Made by a program: the position numbers and the translations under genes
DNA from: an uncultured Spirochaetota bacterium
Lineage (GTDB): Bacteria; Spirochaetota; Spirochaetia; SZUA-6; Fen-1364
DNA: 64,000 nt
Direction of reading: 5' to 3'
NCBI GenBank assembly: GCA_963734545.1
Contig: CAVTHO010000005.1
Coordinates: 544,001-608,000 of the forward strand
Shown here: positions 27,545-42,225 of the stretch, piece by piece
How positions within the stretch are numbered: position 1 is the stretch's first letter
How the letters are laid out: each line of letters begins with the position of its first letter
Notes under the pieces: generated by a model
Told to the model about the DNA's origin: nothing
Databases searched by the model: none
What the model saw: only the letters and a program-made list of their open reading frames with translations

Positions 27545-28534
27545 TCACGCGCCGGGAGGGAGGCCGAACCTGCGGAAAAGGCGGTCGTCGGAAACGAGAA
27601 AGCTGTGCACTTCCGCGATCAGGTCTTCGGCGAGCACGAGCACGTGCAGCGAGGCGGGACGGAAGAGGCCTCCGTCGCCGCGCCGGTACAGACCGAAGGC
27701 CGGGCAGCCGTTGGCGCTCGTTGCCGCCAGGCGGAAACTGCCCCGCGCGTCACCGGAGAAGAGCCTTTCCCCCAAGAACTGACGAATCGCGCTCCGCCCG
27801 CGGAACCAGAGCGGCATCGGCGGCATGGTCATGGACGCGTCCTCCTGCAGGAGCGCCACGAGCGAGTCGGCATCCGCCGCCTCCCACGCCTGCACGTAGC
27901 GGGTCAACAGGGAGGCGCGCGCCGCATCCGCGGGCACCTTACGGCCTGACCCCGGCTGCGCGCCCAGCTTTTTCATGGCGGCGCGGGCACGCTGGAGAGA
28001 GCTGGTCACCGAGGCCGCGCTCGTCTCGAGGATGTCCGCGGTCTCCCGTGCGCTCCATCCGAGGACGTCGCACAGGAGCAGGACCGCGCGCTGTCGGCCG
28101 GGCAGGAGCTGGAGCGCGGTGAGGAACGCCAGGGTCACGCTCTCCCGGATTTCGTAGCGCGTTTCCGGGCTCAGTCCGGGCCGTTCGTCGACGAGCGCGT
28201 CCGGCAGCGGCTCGAGCCAGGGTGATTCCTGCGCCGGCTGCGGGAAAGGGTCCAGAGGGCTGCCCGGCGCATGGGTTGCCGTGGGCAGGGACCGCCTCCG
28301 CCGCTTTGCCAGCGCGTCCAGGGATACATTGGTGGCGATCCTGTAGAGCCAGGCACGGAGCGTGGATCTGCCCTCGAAAGTGTCGAGACTGCGCCAGGCG
28401 CGCAGGAATGTTTCCTGCACCATGTCTTCCGCGTCCTCGATGGAACCGAGCATCCGGTAGCAGTGCACCAGCAGCTCCCGCTCATGGCGGGCGGCGAGGC
28501 CGTGGAAGGTGTCCCTGTCAGGAGAGATCGACAT
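27545..28534 (-). CDS. ECF sigma-70 factor with SnoaL-like C-terminal extension (SigG-like)
   Basis: HCYRMLGSIEDAEDMVQETFLRAW, WLEPLPD, LPGRQRAVLLL, MPPMPLWFRG, ANGCPAF. Confidence 0.9.
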   Translation of the reverse strand: MSISPDRDTFHGLAARHERELLVHCYRMLGSIEDAEDMVQETFLRAWRSLDTFEGRSTLRAWLYRIATNVSLDALAKRRRRSLPTATHAPGSPLDPFPQPAQESPWLEPLPDALVDERPGLSPETRYEIRESVTLAFLTALQLLPGRQRAVLLLCDVLGWSARETADILETSAASVTSSLQRARAAMKKLGAQPGSGRKVPADAARASLLTRYVQAWEAADADSLVALLQEDASMTMPPMPLWFRGRSAIRQFLGERLFSGDARGSFRLAATSANGCPAFGLYRRGDGGLFRPASLHVLVLAEDLIAEVHSFLVSDDRLFRRFGLPPGA

Positions 28535-28991
28535 TTCGTCCCAGGTATTCCGAGTAGTCCCGCGCAGCGGGGGTGTATTCCTCCCCCAGCATGTGGGAGG
28601 AGATGACGAAATCAGCCGTCGACCTGTTGCATGCGGTGGGAATGTTGTACAGGACCGAGATCCTCAGGAGCGCCCGGACATCCACGTCGTGCGGATGCGG
28701 CTGCATCGGATCCCAGAAGAATATAAGAATGTCGATCTTGCCGTCGGCGATCATCGCGCCGAGCTGCTGGTCACCGCCGAATGGCCCGGACTTCAGCTTG
28801 ACCATCTCGTACCGCGGCTGATGCTCCGCATCAATCTGCTTTGCCAGGGCCTCTTCCACGAGCCTCCCCGTGGTTCCCGTGCAGACCAGCTGGTGGTCCA
28901 GGAGCACGTTCCAGTTCCAGCTTACCCATTCCACCATGTCCTTCTTGCAGTTGTCGTGCGCAACGAGCGCAATACGTTTTCTGACGACCAT
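28518..28991 (-). CDS. mgsA: Methylglyoxal synthase
   Basis: IALVAHD, TGTTG, SGPFGGDQQLG, FFWDP, PHDVDV, ACNRSTADF. Confidence 0.95.
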   Translation of the reverse strand: MVVRKRIALVAHDNCKKDMVEWVSWNWNVLLDHQLVCTGTTGRLVEEALAKQIDAEHQPRYEMVKLKSGPFGGDQQLGAMIADGKIDILIFFWDPMQPHPHDVDVRALLRISVLYNIPTACNRSTADFVISSHMLGEEYTPAARDYSEYLGRNVDLS

Positions 28992-29168
28992 GATTCCTCG
29001 ATTCTCCCCCAGAATATAATGGCGGGCGGTTGATCCGCCCATTGCCGGTGGCGTGCCGGCTTGTTCGACTCCCCCTTCCGCAACTATAGGCGAACGCCCT
29101 GCACGGGGAAAGTCCGTCTTCTCCCGCGGCCGGCACGGGACCGCGCGATGGTGTATAGTGGAATCACG

Positions 29169-29705
29169 ATGAATCCCCGGCTGAAAGAGATCGTCGACGA
29201 GATCGAAGCTGCCCGGTCGGAGATTGTCCGCATCATGTCTGATCTGGACGAGGCGGCGACAGCCAGGCGCGCCGATCCCGGCCAGTGGTCGATCGGCGAA
29301 ATCCTCCACCACCTGTTTCTCATCGAGAGTCAGGTGACGACCCTGCTGGAAAGGCAGATCAGGCGGGCAAAGGATCGGGGCATCGGTGCCGACCCGGGCA
29401 CCGAGTCGCTGATCCACAGTCTCGATCGTTTCTCGATAGAAACGGCGCCTGACAAGATCAAGGCGCCGCAATCGGTCGTTCCCGCGCAGGGCGTGAGCAG
29501 GAGCGAGCTGCTTGCCCTGCTCGCCGCGTCCCGCGCGAAGCTCCGGGAGGCGATCAAAGAGGCGGAGGGCATCGATCTCAGCCAGATGCAATTCCCGCAT
29601 CCCGTGTTCGGCCGGATCGACATGTATCAATGGATACTCTACGTGGGCAAGCACGAAAGAAGACACATCGCCCAGATTACGCGCGCAAAAGGGGCATCAT
29701 GCTGA
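29169..29705 (+). CDS. DinB family protein
   Basis: WSIGEILHHL, HPVFG, HERRH. Confidence 0.88.
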   Translation: MNPRLKEIVDEIEAARSEIVRIMSDLDEAATARRADPGQWSIGEILHHLFLIESQVTTLLERQIRRAKDRGIGADPGTESLIHSLDRFSIETAPDKIKAPQSVVPAQGVSRSELLALLAASRAKLREAIKEAEGIDLSQMQFPHPVFGRIDMYQWILYVGKHERRHIAQITRAKGASC

Positions 29706-30484
29706 TCCGAAACGAGAAGGAGTTCCCCTTCGGCTACACTCCCATCACTGAATCACAAGGGCGCCACGCCAAGACACTCATGGATTTTGGTATCCTCAGG
29801 CTGCCCGAAGGCGCCGCGCACCATTTTGCCGCCGGGAAAGAGAGAGCACTGCTTCTCCTTCAGGGAAGTCTGGACGTAGTCGCGGGGCAGGTGAAGAAGA
29901 GGATCGTGCGGGAATCACTTTTCGACCAGGCGCCCTGGTGCCTGCATCTTTCCGCTGACGCGGAGGCCACCGTGACCGCAACCGGGAGGGAGGCGGAGAT
30001 CTCCGTGCACGCAACGGAAAACCCGCGCGGCTTTCCGGTGAAGCTCTACAGCCCTGAAGAGTGCAGGAGCGAAGAGCGGGGCAAGGGTACCATGCGGGAG
30101 ACCTCGACCCGGATCGTGCGCACGATCATCGAGGATCCCCGGGCCCCCTGGTCCAATCTCGTCCTGGGTGAAGTAATCACCTACCCCGGGAAATGGTCCA
30201 GCTACCCGCCGCATCATCACCCGCAGCCTGAGATATATCACTACCGATTCATGCCTCCCGGGGGATTCGGGTTTGCCGCCATCGGCGACGAGGGCTGCGT
30301 GGTGCGCAACCGGGATACCGTGCTTATCCCTCCCCATGCGGTGCATCCCCAGGCAGCCGCGCCCGGCTACGCGATGTTCTACATCTGGGTGATTCGCCAC
30401 CTGGACGGGGACCGCTACGGCGTGCCGACTTTTGTTCCCGAGCACTCCTGGGTCACGGATCCCGCGGCAAAGATCTGGCCGTAG
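29699..30484 (+). CDS. iolB: 5-deoxy-glucuronate isomerase
   Basis: LVLGEVITYPGKWSSYPPHHH, EIYHYRF, HPQAAAPGYAMFYIW. Confidence 0.9.
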   Translation: MLIRNEKEFPFGYTPITESQGRHAKTLMDFGILRLPEGAAHHFAAGKERALLLLQGSLDVVAGQVKKRIVRESLFDQAPWCLHLSADAEATVTATGREAEISVHATENPRGFPVKLYSPEECRSEERGKGTMRETSTRIVRTIIEDPRAPWSNLVLGEVITYPGKWSSYPPHHHPQPEIYHYRFMPPGGFGFAAIGDEGCVVRNRDTVLIPPHAVHPQAAAPGYAMFYIWVIRHLDGDRYGVPTFVPEHSWVTDPAAKIWP

Positions 30485-30512
30485 CACGCCGAAGGCGCGC
30501 AGAGGGCGAGCG

Positions 30513-30539
30513 AGTCCATGGACGGACGAAAGCGAGCCC
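30513..30539 (-). repeat. REP-like element copy
   Basis: Reverse complement GGGCTCGCTTTCGTCCGTCCATGGACT matches both ends of the 11251-11307 element. Confidence 0.55.
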
Positions 30540-30606
30540 TCGCGGCGGCTCGCTGGCTCAAATCGGCGCGGGAATATATGATGAGCACTACACGAGGGGG
30601 TCGGTC

Positions 30607-31443
30607 ATGATCGAGCAGGGACGCTTTGCTCTCAACAGGATTACCTGTCCGTCACTGGGATTGGAGGATTTCTTCCGGTTTTCGGCGGACCTCGGCCTGA
30701 AAAAAGTCGAGCTGCGAAACGACCTGGCCGGCCGGGATGTCATTGACGGCCTTCCCCCCTCCCAGGCAGCCGCTCTGGCGGAACGCCACGGCATCCGGAT
30801 CATCAGCATCAACGCGCTGCAAAAGTTCAACCTGAAAGCGGTCCGGGCCCGGGCGATGGAAGAGCTTGGACAGCTTCTCGACCTGGCCGCTGCCATCCGA
30901 TGCCCGGCCATTGTGCTCTGCCCCAACAACGACACCAAAGACGGAAGGGAAGCGGCCACGCGCGTGGCGGAAACGATCGAGGCGCTGCGGGCTTTCGGCC
31001 CCTTGTTCACGAAACGGGGCATGCAGGGATACGTGGAGCCGCTCGGGTTTCCGGAGTCTTCCCTTTCATCAATCCTCGTGGCGGTTGAAGCGGCGAAGAG
31101 CTCGGGATTCTCCTGCTATCGCGCCCTCTACGATACCTTTCACCATTTCCTGGGACCTGACACGGAAACGGACATCGGCTCACTCTACGATGTGGCCCGC
31201 ACCGGGCTCATCCATGTTTCAGGCGTCGAATCCGGGATCGCGAAGGAAATGTACCGGGATGAGCACCGCGTCCTTCCGTCAGCGGCGGATCGGACAGCCA
31301 GCAGGGAGCAGATCGAGCGGCATGTGGCCCTGGGGTACCAAGGTGACATCTCGCTGGAGCCCTTCTCGCCGGCCGTGCAGTCTCTGCCGCCGAAGGAGCT
31401 GGCTGCTGCAGTGAAACGGAGCGTGGAGTACCTGCGGAGCTAG
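30607..31443 (+). CDS. iolI: TIM-barrel sugar isomerase, 2-keto-myo-inositol isomerase-like
   Basis: FALNR, VELRND, SINALQKFN, VEPLGF, DTFHH, HVSGV, DEHRVL; iol context. Confidence 0.75.
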   Translation: MIEQGRFALNRITCPSLGLEDFFRFSADLGLKKVELRNDLAGRDVIDGLPPSQAAALAERHGIRIISINALQKFNLKAVRARAMEELGQLLDLAAAIRCPAIVLCPNNDTKDGREAATRVAETIEALRAFGPLFTKRGMQGYVEPLGFPESSLSSILVAVEAAKSSGFSCYRALYDTFHHFLGPDTETDIGSLYDVARTGLIHVSGVESGIAKEMYRDEHRVLPSAADRTASREQIERHVALGYQGDISLEPFSPAVQSLPPKELAAAVKRSVEYLRS

Positions 31444-31483
31444 CACGACCCGGGCGCCGCTTCTGCACGGCTTTCAGCCGTGC

Positions 31484-32494
31484 TCAGGTCCTTCGGACGT
31501 TTTTCCGCACGTCTATGGTGACCGCGACCACGATAATGATGGCGCGCGCGACCTGCTGGAAATCCGCTGAAACGTTCAGGATATCCAGGCCGTTTTTCAT
31601 GACGCCGATTATGAGCGCGCCGATGAGCGTTCCCCCGGCGCTTCCCAACCCTCCTGCAAGGCTGGTGCCCCCGATGACGGATGCGGCGATGGCATCCAGC
31701 TCGTAACCCAGGCCCAGGCCCGGCTGGCCCGAACCGATGCGCGCGGTGAGAACGATGGCAGCCACCGCCGCGAGGAATCCCGCGAACGTATAGACCAGGA
31801 TGAGGTAGCGGTCGGTCTTTATTCCCGACACCACCGCGGCCTGGAGGTTGCTTCCCAGGGCATAGGTGTACCTCCCCCACAATGTGTGCTGGAGGATGAC
31901 GTACGTAATTGCCACGCAGACCAGGAGGATGATCGCCGGATTCGGTATGCCGAGGATCGAGCCCTGTCCGATGACCTGGAAGGCATCGATCAGGCTGCCG
32001 CGCGGCCGTCCCTGGGAATAGATAAAAGCCCATCCCCGGGCGAACGTCATCATGCCCAGCGTTGCAATGAAGGGCGGGATCTTGAGCTTGGAAATCATGG
32101 CGCCATTGAGGAATCCGATTGCGAGCCCGAGCCCGAGCCCGATCAACAGTACAATGCCGACCGGCCAGGGGCTCCCGCCCTTGAAGAGACGGTCCATGGC
32201 GTCCGCGCTCTGAAGCAGGCTTGCCACCGCCACCGATACGATGGCAACAATGGCGCCCGAGGAGAGATCGATCCCGGCCGTGATGATGCACATCGTAACG
32301 CCCAGGGCGATGATCCCGATCACGCTGATCTGCCGCAGGACATTCAGCAGGTTGTTGATCCGCAGGGACACCCCGCCGGAGAGGATGGCGATGATGATGA
32401 TGAGCCCGACAAGGATCAGCAGGATGCTGTACTTGCTCATGAACGCCAGGACCGGGGATTCCCTTCTGGTCGAGACCTTTTCGGCTTCAATCAC
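31484..32494 (-). CDS. Sugar (inositol) ABC permease
   Basis: GIDLSSG, IPPFIATLGMM, YELDAIAASVIGGTSL; GTG start after GGAGG. Confidence 0.92.
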   Translation of the reverse strand: MIEAEKVSTRRESPVLAFMSKYSILLILVGLIIIIAILSGGVSLRINNLLNVLRQISVIGIIALGVTMCIITAGIDLSSGAIVAIVSVAVASLLQSADAMDRLFKGGSPWPVGIVLLIGLGLGLAIGFLNGAMISKLKIPPFIATLGMMTFARGWAFIYSQGRPRGSLIDAFQVIGQGSILGIPNPAIILLVCVAITYVILQHTLWGRYTYALGSNLQAAVVSGIKTDRYLILVYTFAGFLAAVAAIVLTARIGSGQPGLGLGYELDAIAASVIGGTSLAGGLGSAGGTLIGALIIGVMKNGLDILNVSADFQQVARAIIIVVAVTIDVRKNVRRT

Positions 32495-32515
32495 GGCTGT
32501 CCTCCAGGGCACGCG

Positions 32516-34036
32516 TTAGTAGTAGTGAACTTCCTTGAACGTGCTGAGCGGCTCGCCCGTGGCCATGTGCAGGATCTTCTCCTGCGTCGCCTCGGCGCGG
32601 CCGATCTCCCCGACTTTCCGTCCCTCGTGCATCACCATGATCCGGTCCGACATGGCGAGAATCTCCGGCATCTCGGAGGAGATCAGGATGATCGCCTTGC
32701 CTTCCTTCGCAAGGCTGGACATGATCTTGTAGATCTCGCTCTTCGTGGCCACGTCGATCCCGCGCGTGGGCTCGTCCATGATCAGCAGGGCGGGGACCGT
32801 GGCGAGCCACCGCGAGACGAGGACCTTCTGCTGGTTGCCTCCGCTGAGGAACATGACGAGCTGCTCGAGGTTGGGAGTCTTGATCCGCAGGGAGCCCACC
32901 GCGTCGTTGCAGAGCTTGCGCAGCGCGCGGTGGTTGATGAAGAGCGCGTTCAGGTTGTTGCGCAGGCTCGGCATGATGATGTTGTCCCGCACCGACAGGT
33001 TCAGGTACAGACCGCTCCTTTTCCTGTCTTCCGTAAGGAAGGCGATCCCGTGCCTGATGGCGTCGTAGGGGCTTTCGATCTTCACGCTCTTTCCGCGGAC
33101 TTTTACCACGCCCGCCTGCTTCGGCGTGACGCCGAAGAGCGCCTCCATCACCTCGGTTCTTCCGGCCCCGATAAGACCCGCAACGCCGAAGATCTCCCCT
33201 TCCCGGACGGAGAAGCTGATATCCCTGAAATAGCCGTGGCGCGTCAGACCCTCCACCTCGAGAACAGGCGCACCAAAGGTCGCATTCTCCTTCTGGAAGA
33301 ACTGGTCGATCGTGCGGCCCACCATCATCTTGATCAGCTTCTCACGGGTCAGGTTGACGCTGTCCTCGCGGCCGACGAACTCGCCGTCCCGGTACACGCT
33401 CACCTCGTCAGTGATCGCAAAGACTTCATCCATCTTGTGGGTGATGTAGATCACGGCGACCCCGCGTTCCTTCAGGCTCTTGATGATGGAGAACAGGTGC
33501 GCTACCTCCTGCTCCGTGAGCGCAGAGGTGGGTTCGTCCATGATGATCAGATCTGCCTTGCGCGAGACCGCCTCCGCGATTTCCACGAGCTGCATCTGGG
33601 CCACGCTCAGCTTGCCCATGATCTGGCGCGGCGTGAGGTTGATGCGAAGCTCCTTGAGCATCTCCGCTGCCGCCGTGTCGATGGCCCGGTGGTCGATGAG
33701 GCCCAGCCTGTTCTTCATTTCCCGGCCGAGAAAGATGTTCTGCGCCACGGTCATGTAGGGAAGCGGGCTCATCTCCTGATGGATCATGGAGATGCCCTGT
33801 GTGAGCGCTTCGTGCACGTTTTCGAAACTGACCTTGTTGCCCCTGAGGGTGATGGATCCCGCATCGGGCCGGTACAGCCCGATTGCGATTTTCATGAGGG
33901 TGGACTTCCCGGCGCCGTTCTCACCCATGACCCCATGCACGGTCCCCGGGCGCACGGAGAGCCCGACACCCCTCAAGGCATGGACGCCGGGAAAGCTCTT
34001 GTGGATGCCCTGCATTTCCAGGATAAACTCACTCAC
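32516..34036 (-). CDS. Sugar (inositol) ABC ATP-binding protein, two domains
   Basis: GENGAGKST, MDEPTSAL, LSGGNQQK, DEPTRGID. Confidence 0.95.
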   Translation of the reverse strand: MSEFILEMQGIHKSFPGVHALRGVGLSVRPGTVHGVMGENGAGKSTLMKIAIGLYRPDAGSITLRGNKVSFENVHEALTQGISMIHQEMSPLPYMTVAQNIFLGREMKNRLGLIDHRAIDTAAAEMLKELRINLTPRQIMGKLSVAQMQLVEIAEAVSRKADLIIMDEPTSALTEQEVAHLFSIIKSLKERGVAVIYITHKMDEVFAITDEVSVYRDGEFVGREDSVNLTREKLIKMMVGRTIDQFFQKENATFGAPVLEVEGLTRHGYFRDISFSVREGEIFGVAGLIGAGRTEVMEALFGVTPKQAGVVKVRGKSVKIESPYDAIRHGIAFLTEDRKRSGLYLNLSVRDNIIMPSLRNNLNALFINHRALRKLCNDAVGSLRIKTPNLEQLVMFLSGGNQQKVLVSRWLATVPALLIMDEPTRGIDVATKSEIYKIMSSLAKEGKAIILISSEMPEILAMSDRIMVMHEGRKVGEIGRAEATQEKILHMATGEPLSTFKEVHYY

Positions 34037-34078
34037 GGTCCCATCCGCTCCCTGGTGGCCCCACGCGGGGGAAGTGCG

Positions 34079-34101
34079 GGGCCGGGCGGCTTGCCCGGCC
34101 C
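34079..34101 (-). other. Intercistronic stem-loop after the SBP gene
   Basis: GGGCCGGGC-GGCTT-GCCCGGCCC. Confidence 0.55.
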
Positions 34102-34116
34102 TGCGGCGATCATAGC

Positions 34117-35037
34117 TTACTTCATGTACTTCTTGTAGTTGTCGAAGCTGACCGGCTCGAACGGAATTGCCGTGAATACCGGCACGCTCTGCTTGTTGAG
34201 CAGCTTGAGAGCGGTCTGCACGGCGCCCCTGCCCTGGGCCCCGCCGTTCTGGAACACGGTCATGTCCAGCCTCTTGTCGGCAATGTACTTCAAGGCATCC
34301 GAGGTTGCGTCAACCCCGGTCACGATCACCTTGTTCTTCATCTTTTTCTCTTCCAGCACGATCACGGCGCCGATGGCCATCTCGTCGTTGTTGGCGATGA
34401 TCGCATCGATTTTTTCGCCGCTGGCCAGCCAGTTCTCGACCACCGTGACCGCCTGAGCTCTGCCGAAGTCCGCCGTCTGCTCGCGGACGACCTTCATGCC
34501 TGGGTACTTGGCGATGACATCCTTGCTGCCCTGGGTCCGCCCGATCTGCGGGGCGGATCCCATCGAACCCATCAGGATGGCGACGTTGCCCTTTCCGCCG
34601 AGCTTCTTTGCCACGAATTCGGCTTCGAGGTTCCCTGCCACCACTTCGGGAGATGCGACGGCGACGACCTTGCCCGCGGAAAGCGCGGCGTCCTCAGGCT
34701 TGCGGTTGAAATAGACGAGCGGGATCTTGGCATCGAGGCAGAGCTTCGTGATCCGTGGGGCGATGGTCTGGTCGATGACGTGGATGAGAATCGCATCCAC
34801 GCCCTGCGTGATGAAGTTCTCGACCTGCTTGATCTGCTCGTTCGGATCACGTTTGCCGTCCGCGGCGATGATGTCGATGTTGCTCTTCTTCGCCTCGTCG
34901 GTGAGCTGGTCGAGCGCGTAGCGCATGAACACGTCGTTGAAATCCTCGATGGTCACACCCATCTTGAGCTTGCCGGCGGAGAACACCGTCGGCGCGATCA
35001 TGAGCGCGACCATGGCAATGAGAAGAAACTTCCTCAT
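34117..35037 (-). CDS. Inositol-type sugar ABC solute-binding protein
   Basis: QVENFITQGVDA, PLVYFNRKP, ANNDEMAIGA, TVFQN; iol context. Confidence 0.9.
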   Translation of the reverse strand: MRKFLLIAMVALMIAPTVFSAGKLKMGVTIEDFNDVFMRYALDQLTDEAKKSNIDIIAADGKRDPNEQIKQVENFITQGVDAILIHVIDQTIAPRITKLCLDAKIPLVYFNRKPEDAALSAGKVVAVASPEVVAGNLEAEFVAKKLGGKGNVAILMGSMGSAPQIGRTQGSKDVIAKYPGMKVVREQTADFGRAQAVTVVENWLASGEKIDAIIANNDEMAIGAVIVLEEKKMKNKVIVTGVDATSDALKYIADKRLDMTVFQNGGAQGRGAVQTALKLLNKQSVPVFTAIPFEPVSFDNYKKYMK

Positions 35038-35071
35038 ACGGACCTCCTCTGAGAGATATTAGGCGCTTGCA

Positions 35072-35087
35072 ATGCAAACGCTTGCAT
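35072..35087. promoter_or_regulatory. LacI-family operator upstream of the ABC operon
   Basis: ATGCAAACGCTTGCAT palindrome with central CG; TTGACA on the minus strand at 35152-35157. Confidence 0.75.
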
Positions 35088-35168
35088 ACGAAGGGAAAAA
35101 AATAGAAAAACCCTCATTCCAACCTCCGAATTTCGCTCCCCATCAAACGGTTGTCAAGTGGATTCTCC

Positions 35169-36257
35169 TCACTTGTCAGGATCCGGGATCATCTGGTCCC
35201 GGATGAGCGCCACGAGATCGTCGACAGCCTTGCTGAACTGCCGCAACGTCCTGCGTGTTGCCCCGAATCCGTCGAACTCCTCCGTCGTCATGCCTGTCTC
35301 CGAGTATGCGCGTCGAAAATCCTCGAACTTCCGCTCCAGCTCTTCCAGGATCCGCCCGTCCACCGGGGTGTCCATTCGTGATTCCACCGTCACGTCGGAA
35401 GCATTGAACCTGTTCTGCCATTCGAACGGGGGGGAAATCACGACGTCACCGCCTATGAACTCACTCCAGTGCAGGTGATTGCGGAATGCGGCGGACAGGA
35501 GGCGCAGCCGGTAGCCTCGTTTCCTGTAGAGCTGATACGCCTTCTTCATCACCGCGACTCCTGCCCAGTCGAATACACGCGGGTCCGCGATGATGCCCTG
35601 CTTTTCCGCCGTCACCCTCAGCCAGTCATCGAGGCGCCCCACCATGAGCGTGCAGACCGGCCCCATCCTGCTGATGTCCTTCTTCTCTTTCTCCCGCTGG
35701 GACAGGCCGCGTTCAACCGCTTCCGCCACGGCGATTGCCTGGGGGAGGGTGAAGCTCACCGTCGCGTTGATGCTGATGCCGCGGCGCGTGGCCTCCTCGA
35801 TGGCCTCCATGCCCGCGCGCGTGGCAGGGATCTTCACGATCATGTTGGGCGCCAGGGCGTCGAAACGGACTGCCTGCTCCACGATGCCGCGCGCGTCGCG
35901 GTAGAGACAGGGGTCGGTCTGGATGGACAGCCGGCCGTTCTTCCCGTTTTCCCTGTCGGAGACCGGCTTCAGGAGCTCGGCGGCCTTGACCGACATCTCC
36001 TCCACCACGCGCCAGGCCACCTGGTCGTCCGCCGCGGCGGGCATTTCCCGAATGATCTGGGCGATCCGGTCCTTCCAGAGGCCCCACTCCTTCTTCAACA
36101 CGGTGAGCACGATCACCGGGTTGCAGGTGGCCCCCGCCGCCCCGTTCACCTCGATGGACGTCCCGAGCTCCTGCAGTGAGCAGGAGTCATTCCACAGCAC
36201 GCTCGGGGTGGTCCGGGTCATTTCGCGCAGCCGGCTCTCCGTCTTTTCAGCTTTCAT
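35169..36257 (-). CDS. Transaldolase/FSA-family class I aldolase
   Basis: WNDS, GATCNP, Schiff-base VKIPAT, INATVSF, MVGRLDD, AAFRN. Confidence 0.88.
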   Translation of the reverse strand: MKAEKTESRLREMTRTTPSVLWNDSCSLQELGTSIEVNGAAGATCNPVIVLTVLKKEWGLWKDRIAQIIREMPAAADDQVAWRVVEEMSVKAAELLKPVSDRENGKNGRLSIQTDPCLYRDARGIVEQAVRFDALAPNMIVKIPATRAGMEAIEEATRRGISINATVSFTLPQAIAVAEAVERGLSQREKEKKDISRMGPVCTLMVGRLDDWLRVTAEKQGIIADPRVFDWAGVAVMKKAYQLYRKRGYRLRLLSAAFRNHLHWSEFIGGDVVISPPFEWQNRFNASDVTVESRMDTPVDGRILEELERKFEDFRRAYSETGMTTEEFDGFGATRRTLRQFSKAVDDLVALIRDQMIPDPDK

Positions 36258-36266
36258 GTCATCCCC

Positions 36267-37160
36267 TCACAATCCCGTCTTTTCCCGAATGAAGCTGCGC
36301 GCTTTCAGCGCATACTCGAAAGGGTTGGCCCGCGCGGGATCCTGCTCGGCCTCCACCACGTACCAACCGCTGTAGCCGCTCGCCTCCAGGCCGCGGAATA
36401 CCGGCTCGAACCTGATCCCTCCGTCTCCGGGCACGGTGAAGACCCCTGCCTGCACGGCCTGAAGGAAGCTCATGCGCTCGCTTTTCACGCGCGCCAGCAC
36501 CTCCGGGCGGACGTCCTTGAGGTGCACGTGGCGGATGCGTGCCGCGTGCCGATTCAGGACAGCCGTGCAGTCTTCACCGGAAAAGGCGAGGTGACCCGTG
36601 TCGTACAACAGGGACAGCCGGGCGGGATCCGTCATGTCCATCAGGCGGTCGATCTCCGCGGCGGTCTGCACGCCCGTCCCCATGTGATGATGGTAGGTGA
36701 GCGTGATGCCCTTCTCCCGGGCCCGTGCGCCCAGGGCGTTCAGCCCTTCGGCGAGGCGTTTCCATTCCTCGTCGGTGAATTGCGGCTTCTCCTCGAAGAT
36801 GGGAGCATCCTGCTTGCCCTGAATCGAGTGTCCCTGTTCCGCTGCCCCGATGATCCGCGCGCCCACGGCGAAGAGGAAATCGCGGTGCGCGACAAAAGCC
36901 TTCTCCACTTCCTCGTAGGGCCGGGTCGTGAGGAACGAGCTGAACCACGCATTGCAGATCGTGAGGCCGCGAAGGTCCAGGTATCTTTTCAGCACCTGCG
37001 GGTCACGGGGGTACTTGTTTCCCACCTCGCTGCCCTCGTAGCCCGCCAGAGCCATCTCGGAAATGCACTGTTCGAAGGTATTGCCCCCCCCGAGCTCCGG
37101 GAGGTCGTCGTTGGTCCAGGCAATCGGCGCGATGCCCAGGCGCACCCTTTTCTCTTTCAT
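36267..37160 (-). CDS. iolE: Myo-inosose-2 dehydratase
   Basis: [39 protein letters not shown]. Confidence 0.95.
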
Positions 37161-37169
37161 TCCTTCCTC

Positions 37170-39035
37170 CTAGAACTTCCGCGCCGATTCGACTTCCCGG
37201 GTGATCTTCCTGGCCGCCGCCTCCACCTTCGGGTTTTCCGAAACCTGCGCGGTCCCCACGCGCCACCAGGATTCGTAGTCATGCGTCATGGATTTCGGGG
37301 TCACCTTCGCGTCGATCACCGTGGAGAGGGTGCCGGCAAGCGCGCTCTTCACCGCGGCGCGGAACTGGTCCATGGTCGTGACGGAATGCCCGCGCGCCCC
37401 GTAGCTCTCGCCGTTCTTGGCGAAGTCCAGGCTGATCAGGGGGCCGGTCAATCTGCCCGTGCCGGGGTCGCGCCGGCGAAGGTCGTTGCCGAACTTCGTG
37501 ATTCCCTGGCTGGTCTGCAGGTTGTCGATGCATTGGTAGCCCGCGTTGTCGAAGACCACGATGGTGATCTTGATGCCCTCCTGGATTGCAGTGAGCAGCT
37601 CCGAGTGCAGCATCACGTAAGAGCCGTCCCCCACGAGCGCAAAGACCTCGCGGTGGGGCTCCGCCATTTTGGCGCCGACTGCCGCCGCGATCTCGTAGCC
37701 CATGCAGGAGAACCCGTATTCCATGTGGTAGGAGCCCGGGACCCGCGCGCGCCACACCCGCTGCAGGTCTCCGGGGATGCTTCCCGAGGCGCCGACGACA
37801 ATGGCATCACGGGGCAGGAGCTTCTCATTGAGCTCGCCCAGGAGACGGACCTGGGAGAGTCCTGCGGGGTCCTCTTCCGTGTACAGGCGGTCTTCCTCTT
37901 TCCTCCACTCGGCGCGCGCCAGCCTTATTTCATCAGCCCAGCCGGATTTCCAGCCCGCCCCACGAAGCGCGGCGGTGAGCGCCTTCAACGTCTCACGCGC
38001 GTCCGCACGCACCGCGAGGGCGTTCATCTTTGCCGCATCGAAGGAGTTCACGTTGATGCCGAGGACCGCGGCGCGAGGATTGCGGAAGAGGTTGCGCGAG
38101 CCGGAAGTGAAGTCCCCCAGCCGCGTGCCCACCGCGATGACGAGGTCAGCGTCATGGGCAATCCTGTTGGCAGCCAGGCCGCCGGTGACCCCGATGCCGC
38201 CAAGGTTGAGCGGATCATCCCAGGGAAGAACGCCCTTGCCCGCCTGTGTTTCGCCGACGGGGATCCCGAATGCCGCGCAGAACTCCGCCAGCGCCTGTGC
38301 CGCCTCCGAGTAGCGGGCGCCGCCGCCGCAGATCAGGATCGGACGCGCGCGGGACCGTATCAAAGCAACGGCCCGTTCGATCTCCCCCGCGGTCGGCGCG
38401 CGTCTCTCCACGTGATGCACCCGCTTTTCGAGGAACTCTTCCGGATACTCGTATGGCTCTCCCTGCACGTCTTGAGGAAGGGCAAGGGTCACCGCGCCCG
38501 TCTCCGCCGGGTCCGTCAGCACGCGCATGGCATTGATGCAGGCGGCCATGAGCTGCTCGGGACGGTTGATCCTGTCCCAGTAGCGGCTGACCGCGCGGAA
38601 TGCGTCGTTTGCCGTCGCCGTGTAGTCGTCCCAGCGCTCCACCTGCTGCAGCACGGGATCGGGCTGCCGGCAGGCAAAAACGTCTCCCGGAAGCAGAAGG
38701 ACGGGGATGCGGTTCACCGAGGCCACGCCTGCCGCCGTGACCATGTTCAGTGCGCCCGGGCCTATCGAGCTCGTCACGGCAAGGATCTGCCTCCGGTTGA
38801 GCTGCTTCGCGTAGCCCACCGCCATGTGGGCCGCGCCCTGTTCGTTGTGGCCCTGGAAGTACGTGAGGCCGTGCTTTCCCTCGGCAAGCGCCTCGCCGAG
38901 CCCGACCACGTTTCCGTGGCCGAAGATGCCGCACACGCCCCGCACGAACTTGATCTCCACGCCGTCGAACTCTGCGTACTGCGCGTCCAGGAACTGCAGG
39001 AGAGCCTGCGCCATTGTCAGCCGGACTGTCTTCAT
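37170..39035 (-). CDS. iolD: 3D-(3,5/4)-trihydroxycyclohexane-1,2-dione acylhydrolase
   Basis: RLTMAQAL, GIFGHGNVVGLG, PDPVLQQVE, YHMEYGFSCMGYE, ThDP motif GDGSY. Confidence 0.96.
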   Translation of the reverse strand: MKTVRLTMAQALLQFLDAQYAEFDGVEIKFVRGVCGIFGHGNVVGLGEALAEGKHGLTYFQGHNEQGAAHMAVGYAKQLNRRQILAVTSSIGPGALNMVTAAGVASVNRIPVLLLPGDVFACRQPDPVLQQVERWDDYTATANDAFRAVSRYWDRINRPEQLMAACINAMRVLTDPAETGAVTLALPQDVQGEPYEYPEEFLEKRVHHVERRAPTAGEIERAVALIRSRARPILICGGGARYSEAAQALAEFCAAFGIPVGETQAGKGVLPWDDPLNLGGIGVTGGLAANRIAHDADLVIAVGTRLGDFTSGSRNLFRNPRAAVLGINVNSFDAAKMNALAVRADARETLKALTAALRGAGWKSGWADEIRLARAEWRKEEDRLYTEEDPAGLSQVRLLGELNEKLLPRDAIVVGASGSIPGDLQRVWRARVPGSYHMEYGFSCMGYEIAAAVGAKMAEPHREVFALVGDGSYVMLHSELLTAIQEGIKITIVVFDNAGYQCIDNLQTSQGITKFGNDLRRRDPGTGRLTGPLISLDFAKNGESYGARGHSVTTMDQFRAAVKSALAGTLSTVIDAKVTPKSMTHDYESWWRVGTAQVSENPKVEAAARKITREVESARKF

Positions 39036-40039
39036 ACGTCCACCTCCGCGATTTTGACCGCGCGGCCTTCCGCGAGCGACTTCTTCGCGGCAAATCCCAT
39101 CAGGAGCGGCTTCAAGCCGTCGATGTCGCCGACAGGGCTCGGTTTCCCGTCGATCACGGTGTCGAAGAACGCGTTCATCTCGTCGACAAAGGCCTGGCGG
39201 TAGCGCTCGAGGAAGAAGTACAGCGGCTTGTCGGACGCCACGCCCGCCTCGTTGGAGAGAGTGACGGAGGAAGGGGTGTCGTTCCCGCAGGCCAGGGCCC
39301 CCTTGGAGCCGAATACTTCGACCCGCTGATCGTAGCCGTAGGTGGCCCTGCGGGAGTTGTCGATGACGCCGATGCAGCCGTTCTGGAAAGCGAGGGTCAC
39401 GACGGCCGTGTCGACGTCTCCCGCCTTTCCGATGGCCGGGTCCACGAGCACGGCCCCCCGGGCGTACACCTCGACGGCGTCGGAGCCCGAGAGATAGCGG
39501 GCCATGTCGAAATCGTGGATGGTCATGTCCAGGAAGATGCCGCCGGAGACCTTCACGTACTCGGGAGGCGGAGGGGCGGGATCGCGCGAGGTGATGCGGA
39601 CAATGTGCGGATCGCCGACGACCCCCTGCCGGACCTGGTCCCTGATCCGCCTGAAATTGTGATCGAACCTGCGATTGAAGCCCACCTGCAGCGTCACGTG
39701 CGCCTTTTGGGCGGCGGCCAGGGCCTTCTTCACCTTGGCCACGGTGAGGTCCACCGGCTTCTCGCAGAAGATGTGCTTCCCCTTTTCCGCCGCGGCCATC
39801 ACGATGTCGGCGTGCGTGTCGGTCGAGCTGCAGATGAGCACCGCGCCGATCTCGGGATCCGCGAGCACGTCGCGGAAATCCGCGCTCACCTGCCTTATAC
39901 CCAGTCCCGAGGCCCAGTCACGCACCTTGTCCGCCGCGACATCGGCGATCCGCGCGATGGTGACCCGTGGAATACTGTGCGCGATGTTTTCCGCGTGGAT
40001 CCTTCCGATTCTCCCCGCTCCGATCAGCCCCACCTTCAT
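39032..40039 (-). CDS. iolG: Inositol 2-dehydrogenase
   Basis: GAGRIG, CEKPVD, GFNRRFD, SGGIFLDMTIHDFD, YGYDQRVEVFG. Confidence 0.93.
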   Translation of the reverse strand: MKVGLIGAGRIGRIHAENIAHSIPRVTIARIADVAADKVRDWASGLGIRQVSADFRDVLADPEIGAVLICSSTDTHADIVMAAAEKGKHIFCEKPVDLTVAKVKKALAAAQKAHVTLQVGFNRRFDHNFRRIRDQVRQGVVGDPHIVRITSRDPAPPPPEYVKVSGGIFLDMTIHDFDMARYLSGSDAVEVYARGAVLVDPAIGKAGDVDTAVVTLAFQNGCIGVIDNSRRATYGYDQRVEVFGSKGALACGNDTPSSVTLSNEAGVASDKPLYFFLERYRQAFVDEMNAFFDTVIDGKPSPVGDIDGLKPLLMGFAAKKSLAEGRAVKIAEVDV

Positions 40040-40048
40040 ACGTCCCTC

Positions 40049-41063
40049 CTACAACCGGATGATCTGTTCTTCCCGGAATGACCGGGTCGCGGCGAACGCG
40101 AGCTTCGTGGCCATGGTGCCGTCATGCACGCCCGCCTGCGGCGCGCGGGTTTCCCGAATACAGTCGACGAACTCCTGGACCTCGGCGAGGTAAGCGGACT
40201 CGAAGCGTTCCAGGAAGCTCTGCGAGCACTCGCGGACCACGCCGCGCGCGTCCAGCAGCTCGACAAAGTCCCTCTGCGGCACGCTGGCGATCCTGAGCGA
40301 GGCCTTTGTGCCGATGATCTCCGTCTCCACCGCGTATCCGTGCGCCGCCGTCCTCCCGGCCAGGAAGAAGGCCATGGCACCGTTGTCAAAGCGCACCAGG
40401 GCGGCGAGGTTGTCACCGTCGCCGTACGCGGCGAACTCCGGGTGCGCATAGCAGCCGCCCGTGGCGTAGACGGTTTGCGCCTCTCCGCCGAGCATCCAGC
40501 GCGCCAGGTCGATGTCGTGCACGGACATGTCGAGGAATTGTCCGCCCGAGGACGGCGCGAATCGTATGGCGCCCTCGATGGCGGACTCCGGATCGACCGA
40601 GTAGCCGCGAAAGAGGATCGGCCGGCCGATGTATCCCTCGTCGATCAGTTTCTTCGCGCGGCGGTAGGAAGGATCGAACCGGCGCATGAAGCCGAGCATG
40701 AAGGTCCTGTCCGGGTGACGCGCAACCGCGCTTTCCGCCTGGACGCACTCTTCCAGGGTCACGCCAAGAGGCTTTTCGCAGAAGACGTGAAGACCCGCCT
40801 CCAGCGCCTGCTCGATCTGCCCGGCAGTGGACCGCGGAGCTCGAAGCGATAAGAACCGCGTCCAGCTCCTCGTCCTCCCGCATGCGCGCGAAATCCGCAT
40901 ACCCGCGCGGCACCGCCCACTCGCGCCGGGCTCTCTCCACGCGCTCCGTCTCGAGCGCGCACACGGCACTCAGCTCCGCACCGTTGACGCGGAAAGCGAT
41001 GTTCTCCGCATGCCGCATCCCGAGTCTTCCCAGGCCGACCACACCGATGCGCACCTTCTGCAA
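40049..41063 (-). CDS. Second Gfo/Idh/MocA inositol-isomer dehydrogenase, apparent +1 frameshift near 40820
   Basis: TTG start with RBS; GLGRLG N-terminus in one frame, CEKPLG/GFMRRFD/DMSVHDID in the next. Confidence 0.85.
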
Positions 41064-41160
41064 CGCCGCTCCTCCTTGCGCGGTCTATCCCGCACCGCCC
41101 GAAGGGCGGTTTCCACGCGCGGGCCCTACTGTCTTTTGCTTGCCATCGCCCTTCACGCTC

Positions 41161-42225
41161 CTACGCCTCGCTTGATTGACGGATCACGAGCTTCGGGGAG
41201 AGAAGAGTCCGCCGCGCGCCGCGCGGCGCGCCGCCCGCCCGGCGCGTGCGGATCAGCTCGATCAACCGCTCGCAGGTGACCAGGGAGAGCTCTTCGCGGG
41301 GCTGGTGGATGGTGGTGAGGGAGGGGCGCATGCTGGCGGCGAGGTCCGTGTCGTCGTATCCGATCACGGAGACGTCCTGCGGCACGCGCAGACCGAGCTC
41401 CTTGACGGCAAGCAGAGATCCGATGGCCATGAGGTCGTTTGCAGCGAACAGGGCATCGTAACCCTGTACGTTCCGGCCGAGACGCATCACCGCCTCGTAG
41501 CCGGACTCCATGGTCTGGTCCCCCTGCAGGAGGTCCTCCGGGCGCAGCGCGATCTCCGATTCCGAAAGACCGCGGCGCAGCCCTGCCAGACGGAGCCGGT
41601 ATTCCCGTTCGGTCTCCTTCACACTTTCGGTTGTCAGGCACAGGACGCGCTTCCTGCCAAGGGCGCCGAAGTGCTTCCCCGCGAGGTAGCCGCCGTACTC
41701 GTTGTCCGGGTAGATGACGTCGACGTCCGCCGGGCACTGATCCGTCGGCGGGTAGTGGGAGAACACGAACGGCACTTCCTTCGCATGCAGGTAGTCGATC
41801 AACTCCTGCTCGAACACGGGCTGCACGATGATGAGCCCGTCCACCTTCTTGCGCGCGACGAGCTTCGTGATATTGTTTCCGCCGGTGAAGTGGTTGTTGA
41901 GAAACGCCACGAGCAGATCTATGTCGTTGCACTCGAGCACGCTGCGCAGAGAGCTGTGCAGCGTGCCGTGGTAGAGATTCACGCCGAAGCGGTCGTACTC
42001 GGGCGGGAGGATGATGCCGATCGTGCCCACGCGGCGGGTGATGAGGCTTCGCGCGTGGGAATTGAACTCGAAGCCGAGCGCGTCTGCAATGCCGCGGATG
42101 CGCTTGCGCGTCTTTTCGGGAATCAGAGTCACATCATTCAGGCTCCGCGACACGGTTGCCATGCTGACTCCGGCAGCTCTTGCCACATCGCGAAGTGTCG
42201 TCTCCTTGCAAACGTTTGCATTCAT
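41161..42225 (-). CDS. LacI family repressor (IolR-like)
   Basis: TLRDVARAAGVSMATVSRSL, ANDLMAIG, VPQDVSVIGYDD, LTTIHQP. Confidence 0.93.
   Translation of the reverse strand: MNANVCKETTLRDVARAAGVSMATVSRSLNDVTLIPEKTRKRIRGIADALGFEFNSHARSLITRRVGTIGIILPPEYDRFGVNLYHGTLHSSLRSVLECNDIDLLVAFLNNHFTGGNNITKLVARKKVDGLIIVQPVFEQELIDYLHAKEVPFVFSHYPPTDQCPADVDVIYPDNEYGGYLAGKHFGALGRKRVLCLTTESVKETEREYRLRLAGLRRGLSESEIALRPEDLLQGDQTMESGYEAVMRLGRNVQGYDALFAANDLMAIGSLLAVKELGLRVPQDVSVIGYDDTDLAASMRPSLTTIHQPREELSLVTCERLIELIRTRRAGGAPRGARRTLLSPKLVIRQSSEA
42207..42220. promoter_or_regulatory. LacI operator within the first codons of the repressor gene
   Basis: Perfect palindrome TGCAAACGTTTGCA; TTGACA on the minus strand at 42258-42263. 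Confidence 0.75.

Follow-up and report, generated by a model that had tools for sequence, protein, structure and literature searches.

A transaldolase-family gene in a spirochaetal inositol operon: candidate for a kinase-free lower pathway

Inositol set free from phytate ranks among the major plant-derived sources of carbon in soil and gut. In the canonical pathway, the product of IolB passes through a kinase (IolC) and a class II aldolase (IolJ), and the locus described here raises the question of how this part of the pathway could run where neither gene is found. It lies in a 64,000-nucleotide stretch (the window; C5:544001-608000) of the genome of an uncultured spirochaete (G000; 5.14 Mb in 10 contigs, 63% G+C, rated 89% complete), in which an operon for inositol breakdown includes a non-canonical member of the transaldolase/fructose-6-phosphate aldolase (TAL/FSA) family. 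We refer to this gene and its homologues as TAL and to its 362-residue product in the window as P0001. A survey of iol genes, as far as its accessible text goes, takes iolB, iolC, iolD, and iolE as the core genes that mark an inositol user (PMC9430895); because this definition includes iolC, surveys of this kind would under-call lineages that work without the kinase. In the available portion of the GapMind study, 8 of 26 inositol utilizers have neither IolJ nor DUF2090, the only two aldolases listed there (PMC9007349).

Our comparison of genomes suggests that TAL cleaves unphosphorylated 5-dehydro-2-deoxygluconate (DKG) to malonate semialdehyde and in this way replaces IolC plus IolJ without any kinase, a reading to which we assign a probability of roughly 0.55. 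A kinase-free lower pathway is what the genomic evidence best fits, in view of the position of TAL in the operon, the recurring order IolB-TAL-IolA, the great rarity of iolC and iolJ at TAL loci, the way in which TAL and IolC alternate, a kinase-free module in another spirochaete, the shared operator, and the conserved substrate pockets. It would be a variation on a pathway type already known, proposed here from comparative genomics only; our full-text literature search, which did not extend to subscription journals and supplements, turned up no publication that connects a transaldolase with iol catabolism.

The transaldolase-family gene, its operon, and its genome

On the minus strand of the window, a tightly packed gene string reads lacI, iolG2 (frameshifted), iolG, iolD, iolE, TAL, and an ATP-binding cassette (ABC) importer, while the plus strand of the locus carries a KduI/IolB-family gene and a gene for a xylose-isomerase-like TIM-barrel protein. 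A preliminary description made from the letters alone had named iolG, iolE, iolD, iolB, an iolI-like gene, the ABC importer, and the LacI repressor, and profile matches confirm all of them, iolB at the level of its Pfam family; its gene list needed correction at two points, a frameshift in a second iolG and a methylglyoxal synthase domain in a neighboring open reading frame (ORF). With equivalogs of iolG, iolE, and iolD all scoring over their cut-offs within one locus, the whole is best explained as a LacI-controlled myo-inositol catabolic operon with iolB and the TIM-barrel gene alongside. Exactly 9 nt, the distance given before, separate the iolE stop codon from the start codon of TAL, which is in the same frame, and a purine-rich stretch spans the stop, so that loss of this one stop codon would make an IolE-TAL fusion. 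Two fusion proteins do exist among the homologues, P0130 (full IolE plus TAL, 655 aa) and P0155 (TAL plus partial IolB, 566 aa). We give them little weight as Rosetta stones: each is a single-member cluster from one contig.

As already described, iolC, iolJ, and iolA are absent from the window, where no match to PfkB, class II aldolase, or MmsA was found; the nearest such matches beyond it are PfkB fragments (C5:619297-620047) and an aldehyde dehydrogenase (ALDH; C5:623530-624783). ORFs outside the window come from GC3-guided ORF picking, which missed some genes (e.g., the PfkB on contig C3 discussed below), and absences were always checked by tblastn or family searches.

Two predicted LacI-type operators probably couple TAL to the iol genes in the lineage of the window, where the operon is purely iol. 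The perfect copy, a 14-bp palindrome, is single in the genome, and allowing up to one mismatch yields two sites genome-wide, both in the iol locus; a whole-genome scan with up to two mismatches gave no site at PfkB, class II aldolase, or IolA genes. The first operator is found at the same position in 7 related loci (L026, L031, L033, L041, L082, L083, and L085) and the second in 8 (L026, L027, L031, L033, L041, L081, L083, and L085), and both positions are kept in relatives with TAL identity down to 76% to 81%. An extra site stands directly before TAL in L083, and a near-identical operator is found approximately 60 bp before TAL in 2 loci of Acidobacteriaceae (L032 and L159).

A search of G000 for iolC and iolJ, as the preliminary description had advised, found no equivalog of either nor of DUF2090, the alternative aldolase for 5-dehydro-2-deoxy-6-phosphogluconate (DKGP), and iolC or iolJ under the same operator were looked for genome-wide and not found. 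No PfkB reaches the iolC cut-off (TIGR04382, 300 bits). The best one (C3:291470-292537) has the iolC model as its top match with 184 bits; we rejected it as a hidden iolC in view of an approximately equal fructokinase score (178 bits), an adjoining GntR/UTRA regulator and separate ABC system, and no operator. The iolC-like PfkB proteins of 4 related spirochaetes (G002, G006, G008, and G016; 203 to 237 bits) are mutual orthologues at 67% to 82% identity without an orthologue in G000 (best 30% to 33% identity), and that of G008 adjoins a short-chain dehydrogenase/reductase (SDR) and a zinc-dependent alcohol dehydrogenase (Zn-ADH), a fructokinase-like context. Three class II aldolases are encoded, none of them in a kinase or iol context. 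The one on C7 (308 bits) is likely the housekeeping Fba. The one on C6 was rejected as iolJ because ABC exporter genes and a nitroreductase precede it, neither kinase nor operator is nearby, and its G006 orthologue is part of another sugar locus; a LacI-family gene lies approximately 1.4 kb downstream. The one on C3 (122267-123145) is split over three frames with an internal TGA and looks like a gene remnant, as does a third, partial TAL_FSA-like ORF on the same contig (C3:283788-284720, equal to L012:4788-5720) in which the first domain half matches with 79.7 bits.

A curated-equivalog transaldolase is encoded at C7:490161-490796 (TIGR02134, 310 bits, cut-off 282), so the TAL of the operon is not the housekeeping enzyme. 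The sole IolA/MmsA over cut-off, a CoA-acylating malonate/methylmalonate-semialdehyde dehydrogenase (538 bits, cut-off 448.5), is found at C4:600018-601550 amid a dihydropyrimidine-dehydrogenase-like gene, a CN hydrolase, and a uracil-type permease (C4:593000-604000, L168), a cluster that we read from its gene content as reductive pyrimidine degradation. This route also ends in malonate semialdehyde. The dihydroxyacetone kinase domain Dak1 has 3 matches in G000; 2 of them (C5:730908-731843 and C5:745656-746591) have identical scores of 393.2 bits on opposite strands 14 kb apart near the contig end and may be an inverted duplication.

P0001 itself matches PF00923 with 137.1 bits (gathering score 27) over residues 21 to 348 and stays under the cut-off of every TAL/FSA model of NCBIfam (TIGR00874, TIGR00876, NF002881, TIGR02134, and others), with best scores of 120.9 bits for NF002881 (cut-off 367) and 88.9 for TIGR00876 (cut-off 233.75); the fructose-6-phosphate aldolase model TIGR00875 gives 46.4 bits (cut-off 245.95). 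Its nearest solved relatives are transaldolases of Corynebacterium and Neisseria (74 and 68 bits), and its AlphaFold model (pLDDT 93.6) reaches Foldseek TM values of 0.80 to 0.83 with 7bbx, 3clm, and 3r5e at 22% identity, while the match to the SF-TAL structure 8bc3 (BmSF-TAL; 32.5 bits) covers residues 103 to 179 only. Judged by sequence and predicted fold, P0001 is a TAL-fold Schiff-base enzyme of the TAL/FSA superfamily in a distinct subfamily outside classical TAL (EC 2.2.1.2), FSA, and SF-TAL. This subfamily counts at least 8000 proteins among the matches listed and 329 clusters (50% identity) at E <= 1e-30.

We mapped the active site by alignment to Escherichia coli TalB and FsaA, with the roles of TalB residues taken from PDB entry titles and PMC3962226. 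P0001 keeps the Schiff-base lysine (TalB K132 = K142) as well as Asp17 (D24), Asn35 (N46), and Thr156 (T166), all invariant in both alignments including 13 subfamily sequences, and it also keeps TalB Asn154 as N164, with T203 at the position of Ser176. The accessible text ties Ser176 to the preference for a dihydroxyacetone donor (the site of the donor C1-OH in TalB/FSA) and describes an anion site of two arginines, of which R181 is named, and one serine (PMC3962226). The catalytic Glu96 of TalB is Gln113 in P0001, as in FSA (Gln59), and Met205 takes the position of the catalytic Tyr131 of FSA and Phe178 of TalB; both are invariant in 13/13 subfamily sequences, and the predicted acid/base arrangement is non-canonical. 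Among 43 full-length wider representatives down to approximately 31% identity, 37 have Gln and 32 have Met at these positions, and the residues of the donor pocket vary. Both arginines of the anion site are kept (TalB R181 = R208 and R228 = R259) and its serine is replaced by alanine; we take the second arginine and the serine of TalB to be R228 and S226. With the residues for the donor C1-OH and both anion-site arginines conserved, the pocket would suit a donor whose C1-OH is free and that carries a distal anion.

Company of TAL across phyla

Our pooled set comprised 107 loci from at least 6 phyla, 103 of them with a called TAL ORF. TAL is co-located with iolD in 38, iolE in 34, iolB in 29, and iolA in 26 of these 103 loci, and its immediate neighbor is IolA in 12 and IolB in 11. 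An iolC-like kinase is found in 3/103 and a class II aldolase (IolJ-like) in 1/103. The co-occurrence with iolB, iolD, and iolE that had been expected from the window alone is therefore seen across phyla and extends to iolA. The expected anti-correlation with iolC and iolJ is borne out by these locus counts and broken by the TAL genomes that do encode iolC, just as the expected linkage of homologues to iol genes recurs across phyla and fails in some TAL genomes without iolD; both sets of exceptions are weighed below.

The species-representative genomes contributed 19 TAL loci from Spirochaetota, Acidobacteriota, Calditrichales, Chloroflexota, Actinomycetota, and Verrucomicrobiae, with iolD within 10 kb in 11, an IolA-like ALDH in 7, and iolC in 2 (L036 and L042, both Actinomycetota). 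At the 80 metagenome loci we found IolD in 28, IolB in 22, IolE-like genes in 29, IolG-family genes in 42, and IolA in 17, and at least one iol gene was present in 38 of the 45 loci with a length of 8 kb or more. Searches with PfkB (six queries) and aldolase (four queries) sequences of several phyla (E <= 1e-10) found IolC/PfkB and class II aldolase in 0/80 of these loci. A kinase-less synteny like that of the window is repeated in G001, G006, G008, and G016 as well as on metagenome contigs. Among the 17 genomes with TAL within approximately 11 kb of IolD (G000 included), 13 are without an iolC over cut-off. DUF2090 is absent from 24/26 TAL genomes.

In contrast, iolC lies no more than 5 kb from IolD in 8 TAL-less IolD loci (G443, G478, G499, G009, G018 with two, contig C32 of G312, and G564). 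Phylum-wide correlation of TAL with iolC was uninformative for Spirochaetota and Actinomycetota because TAL is rare in both samples (8/301 and 2/301 genomes, respectively). In the Acidobacteriota sample (n = 201), 12 genomes encode IolD, of which 3 have TAL without IolC, 3 have IolC adjoining IolD without TAL, and none has both. Two loci illustrate this alternation, L166 with the order IolB-IolD-IolC-IolA-IolE and L165 with IolD-TAL-IolE / IolB. They share the same type of IolB, and the IolB that accompanies TAL in Acidobacteriota scores as a true equivalog (334 bits); TAL and IolC thus appear to receive the same substrate.

Low-G+C spirochaetes show the gene orders IolB-IolD-TAL-IolA (L074) and IolD-IolE-IolG / IolB-TAL / IolA (L076). 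One of them, G312, encodes both kinds of module on two contigs, IolJ-IolC-IolB-IolG-IolD-IolE (L173) and IolB-IolD-TAL-IolA (L074), of which the TAL module spans ring cleavage through malonate-semialdehyde dehydrogenase and is kinase-free. In a tree of 23 TAL proteins and TalB, from which the short L040 and the frameshifted L033, L039, L042, L043, and L044 were excluded, the clade of high-G+C spirochaetes is placed with Acidobacteriota, and the IolA in the TAL cluster of a Chloroflexia metagenome-assembled genome (MAG; L039:16730-18259) is 81% identical to the C4 IolA of G000; together, this suggests transfer of the TAL module between phyla.

Among Acidobacteriota, a DegT aminotransferase directly follows TAL in 14 loci. 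A recurring order there (metagenome loci L128, L132, L134, L144, L148, L154, and L155) is TonB-type outer-membrane barrel, Zn-ADH, IolE-like, IolG-like, TAL, DegT/EryC1 aminotransferase, IolG-like, LacI, APC permease, IolD, and IolB. An aminotransferase together with a permease of the amino-acid type suggests that these clusters break down an aminocyclitol, e.g., inosamine.

Proposed pathway and rival explanations

The product of IolB is a 5-deoxy-hex-2-ulosuronate with a free CH2OH-CO head, fructose-like C3/C4, and a terminal carboxylate. We infer that a retro-aldol reaction of the TAL type, which is established chemistry for the family, would split this compound into malonate semialdehyde and an enzyme-bound dihydroxyacetone unit. 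IolG, IolE, IolD, and IolB, as their equivalog matches suggest, would first make DKG; Lys142 of TAL would then form a Schiff base with the C5 ketone of unphosphorylated DKG, and cleavage of the C3-C4 bond would release malonate semialdehyde. The bound dihydroxyacetone unit could be transferred to glyceraldehyde 3-phosphate (GAP), which gives fructose 6-phosphate (F6P), or be hydrolyzed off as dihydroxyacetone and then phosphorylated by a Dak kinase, while malonate semialdehyde would pass to the CoA-acylating IolA/MmsA that is encoded elsewhere in G000 and next to TAL in many relatives. The new activity would be that of a DKG:GAP glyceronetransferase or a DKG aldolase in a clade of Gln/Met-type transaldolases, for which we see slightly better than even odds. 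Dak1 was considered as a discriminator between the aldolase and transferase modes. Given its patchy presence (21/28 TAL genomes, not in the Acidobacteriota G007, G351, and G487 with TAL and IolD), it is not decisive.

Several findings weigh against a kinase-free route through TAL. Neither TAL nor IolC is found in 6 of the 12 IolD-positive Acidobacteriota; of these 6, we examined 4, and 3 have a lone IolD homologue without any other iol gene nearby, while one has an IolE-like gene as well. An iolC, over cut-off or split by a frameshift, is encoded in 7/30 TAL genomes (G009, G011, G017, G018, G304, G312, and G564) and shares the locus of TAL in 3 of them. Two of these 3 are the Actinomycetota G011 (L036) and G017 (L042) with iolC 1 to 2 kb from TAL (357 bits, or 219 plus 113 bits when split by the frameshift) and no iolJ nearby, which would fit a replacement of IolJ only. 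The third is G304 (L077), where one cluster combines class II aldolase, IolC, IolB, TAL, IolA, an ABC system, IolD, IolE, and two IolG. In G009, G018, and G564, canonical clusters lie elsewhere and TAL is not linked to iol genes. The IolC-associated members are scattered over the TAL tree and do not form a clade. Nine TAL genomes, including three Bryobacterales, are without IolD, so the subfamily is not restricted to inositol. In G000, the IolB of the window scores under the curated cut-off of its model, IolA lies outside the iol locus and without an operator, and the completeness of 89% limits what the absence of a kinase can tell. Finally, Gln and Met stand in place of the acid/base residues of the family, the catalytic Glu and the FSA-type Tyr.

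The iolC genes of G011 and G017 are also an argument for a narrower role, in which TAL would replace only IolJ as a class I aldolase that splits DKGP into dihydroxyacetone phosphate (DHAP) and malonate semialdehyde, the kinase being IolC or one that is not recognized as such. In both genomes a true iolC stands next to TAL and iolD, the sole class II aldolase is far from the cluster, and TAL shares the invariant active-site residues of P0001; moreover, DUF2090 is, going by the available text, another non-orthologous DKGP aldolase (PMC9007349), and the best PfkB of G000 has iolC as its top model, though well under the cut-off. We nevertheless consider this role unlikely. PfkB is absent from all metagenome TAL loci and present in just 3 of the pooled ones, though iolC normally stands beside iolD, as in the TAL-less loci, and most genomes with TAL near IolD are without an iolC over cut-off. 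Related spirochaetes have an iolC-like PfkB that is without an orthologue in G000 and, in G008, lies in a fructokinase-like context, and the IolB-IolD-TAL-IolA module of G312 is kinase-free. Furthermore, conservation extends to the binding residues for the donor C1-OH (Asn164, and Thr203 in place of TalB Ser176), and to our knowledge no member of the TAL/FSA family accepts a 1-phosphorylated donor. An ordinary pentose-phosphate transaldolase acting on sedoheptulose 7-phosphate and F6P, in the operon by chance and with iolC and iolJ merely unassembled, would agree with the Pfam TAL_FSA membership, the TAL fold, and the incomplete genome. This seems very improbable for a protein that scores under every TAL/FSA cut-off and has no catalytic Glu, in a genome with a curated-equivalog transaldolase elsewhere, from a subfamily that tracks iol genes across phyla and repeats the kinase-less synteny of the window.

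The nine TAL genomes without IolD lead to a different alternative, that TAL acts on a broader or other unphosphorylated keto-sugar acid (5-keto-gluconate, or the product of an aminocyclitol, a 2-deoxy-sugar, or a 3-keto-glycoside) and serves a side branch in this operon. Bryobacterales loci L028 and L030 have the genes for an FG-GAP/3-keto-disaccharide-hydrolase, IolA, TAL, SDR, M24 peptidase, and DUF4432 (with DUF6807 in L028), i.e., the order IolA-TAL-SDR with the hydrolase upstream, and TAL lies between IolA and SDR also in L095, a contig resembling Bryobacterales; since IolD is absent from those genomes, the TAL-IolA pair serves another substrate there. The acidobacterial DegT aminotransferases after TAL and the wider clade, which largely keeps Gln and Met but varies in its donor pocket, point the same way. 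For the locus studied here, we find this explanation rather doubtful: The operon is purely iol in the lineage of the window, with the operator coupling TAL to the iol genes, and without TAL there would be no route here from DKG into central metabolism. The recurring order IolB-TAL-IolA is what would be expected for DKG, and the recurring link to IolA, even in other contexts, still points to a product of the malonate-semialdehyde type. Cleavage of unphosphorylated DKG by TAL is our preferred reading.

Other features of the locus and known systems compared

The closest named homologues come from Spirochaetia MAGs. The features of the locus are collected in the table. The Rossmann N-terminus of iolG2 is read in another frame than the remainder of the gene, starting from a TTG at 41063, and the gene is either a pseudogene or affected by an assembly error. 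The TIM-barrel gene beside the permease is kept in L026, L027, L031, L033, and L083. On the other side of iolB, the N-terminal 225 residues of the ORF with the methylglyoxal synthase domain have no match and may be over-called; its place beside iolB is kept in L026 and L033, and whether it is part of the iol system is uncertain. Methylglyoxal synthase uses DHAP, so this ORF may have a link to C3 overflow.

Table. Features of the inositol locus (positions in the window, counted from its first letter)
Feature	Position	Strand	Evidence
LacI-type operator, perfect 14-bp palindrome (predicted)	42207-42220		overlaps first lacI codons; a TTGACA -35 box lies upstream of it
LacI-family repressor, first gene of the operon	41161-42225	-	Pfam LacI, Peripla_BP_3, Peripla_BP_1
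Second iolG paralogue (iolG2), one frameshift near 40825	40049-41063	-	TIGR04380, 271 bits, model positions 78-329, in ORF 40049-40969
iolG, inositol 2-dehydrogenase	39032-40039	-	TIGR04380, 476.9 bits (cut-off 355)
iolD, trihydroxycyclohexane-1,2-dione acylhydrolase	37170-39035	-	TIGR04377, 911.9 bits (cut-off 715)
iolE, inosose dehydratase	36267-37160	-	TIGR04379, 421.2 bits (cut-off 290)
TAL/FSA-family gene, non-canonical (P0001, 362 aa)	35169-36257	-	PF00923, 137.1 bits
Second LacI-type operator, 1 mismatch (predicted)	35073-35086		36 bp upstream of the binding-protein gene, just downstream of TAL
ABC importer, periplasmic sugar-binding protein	34117-35037	-	Peripla_BP_4, 190 bits
ABC importer, ATPase, RbsA/AraG-like, two cassettes	32516-34036	-	family matches
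ABC importer, permease, RbsC-like	31484-32512	-	family matches; whole Rbs-type importer 31484-35037
Xylose-isomerase-like TIM-barrel protein, IolI/IolH-like	30607-31443	+	PF01261, 73 bits; no NCBIfam family
Divergent iolB, 5-deoxy-glucuronate isomerase family	29630-30484	+	Pfam KduI/IolB, 203 bits; TIGR04378, 111.6 bits (cut-off 205)
ORF with C-terminal methylglyoxal synthase	28518-29666	-	NF003559, 200 bits (cut-off 84); TIGR00160, 151.9 bits (cut-off 146.9); residues 227-377

If the proposed role of TAL is correct, the lower branch of inositol catabolism, and perhaps that of aminocyclitols, would have an ATP-independent form, common among soil Acidobacteriota, Chloroflexota, Spirochaetota, and some Actinomycetota, and a solution of the TAL type would explain part of the gaps reported by GapMind. 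Biocatalysis would gain an enzyme that transfers dihydroxyacetone, binds a carboxylate in its pocket, and has its catalytic residues arranged in an unusual way. Compared to the canonical pathway of the Bacillus subtilis type with IolC and IolJ, the upstream enzymes IolG, IolE, IolD, and IolB and the malonate semialdehyde expected to reach IolA are the same, whereas the proposed route would do without kinase, ATP use, and class II aldolase and would have F6P or dihydroxyacetone instead of DHAP as its C3 product. The fusion of IolC with DUF2090 likewise puts a non-orthologous enzyme into this part of the pathway and was found by genomic context, but DUF2090 is LacD-like, forms one protein with the kinase, and takes the phosphorylated compound as its substrate, as proposed from fitness data according to the accessible text (PMC9007349).

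With FsaA and TalB, P0001 shares the fold, the Lys, Asp, Asn, and Thr of the active site, and the arginines of the anion site (both in TalB, while FsaA has Lys at the second). It differs from them by an identity of just 22% to 23%, Ala in place of the phosphate-binding Ser226, Met at the position of TalB Phe178 and FSA Tyr131, and an extra helical C-terminal region within its 362 residues. The closest likeness is to the sulfoglycolytic transaldolase SftT, which, according to the available text, cleaves unphosphorylated sulfofructose, transfers the C3 unit to GAP or erythrose 4-phosphate, and replaces the kinase YihV and the aldolase YihT, with an aldehyde dehydrogenase acting next (PMC7491151). 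The pathway logic proposed here would be the same, with an anionic unphosphorylated ketohexose analogue as substrate and a co-encoded aldehyde dehydrogenase in the role that IolA would have. This likeness is one of proposed function and not of family: SftT is described as a short-type transaldolase closest to the F6P transaldolase of Thermoplasma acidophilum, whereas P0001 is of the long type and has Gln and Met where the acid/base residues would be, and the proposed substrate of P0001 is a carboxylate while that of SftT is a sulfonate. By this analogy, the proposed step would be the inositol counterpart of a change known from sulfoglycolysis, where the transaldolase of the sulfo-TAL pathway stands in for the kinase and aldolase of the sulfo-EMP pathway, and it would be the second natural case after sulfoglycolysis of a transaldolase that replaces kinase and aldolase on an anionic unphosphorylated ketose.

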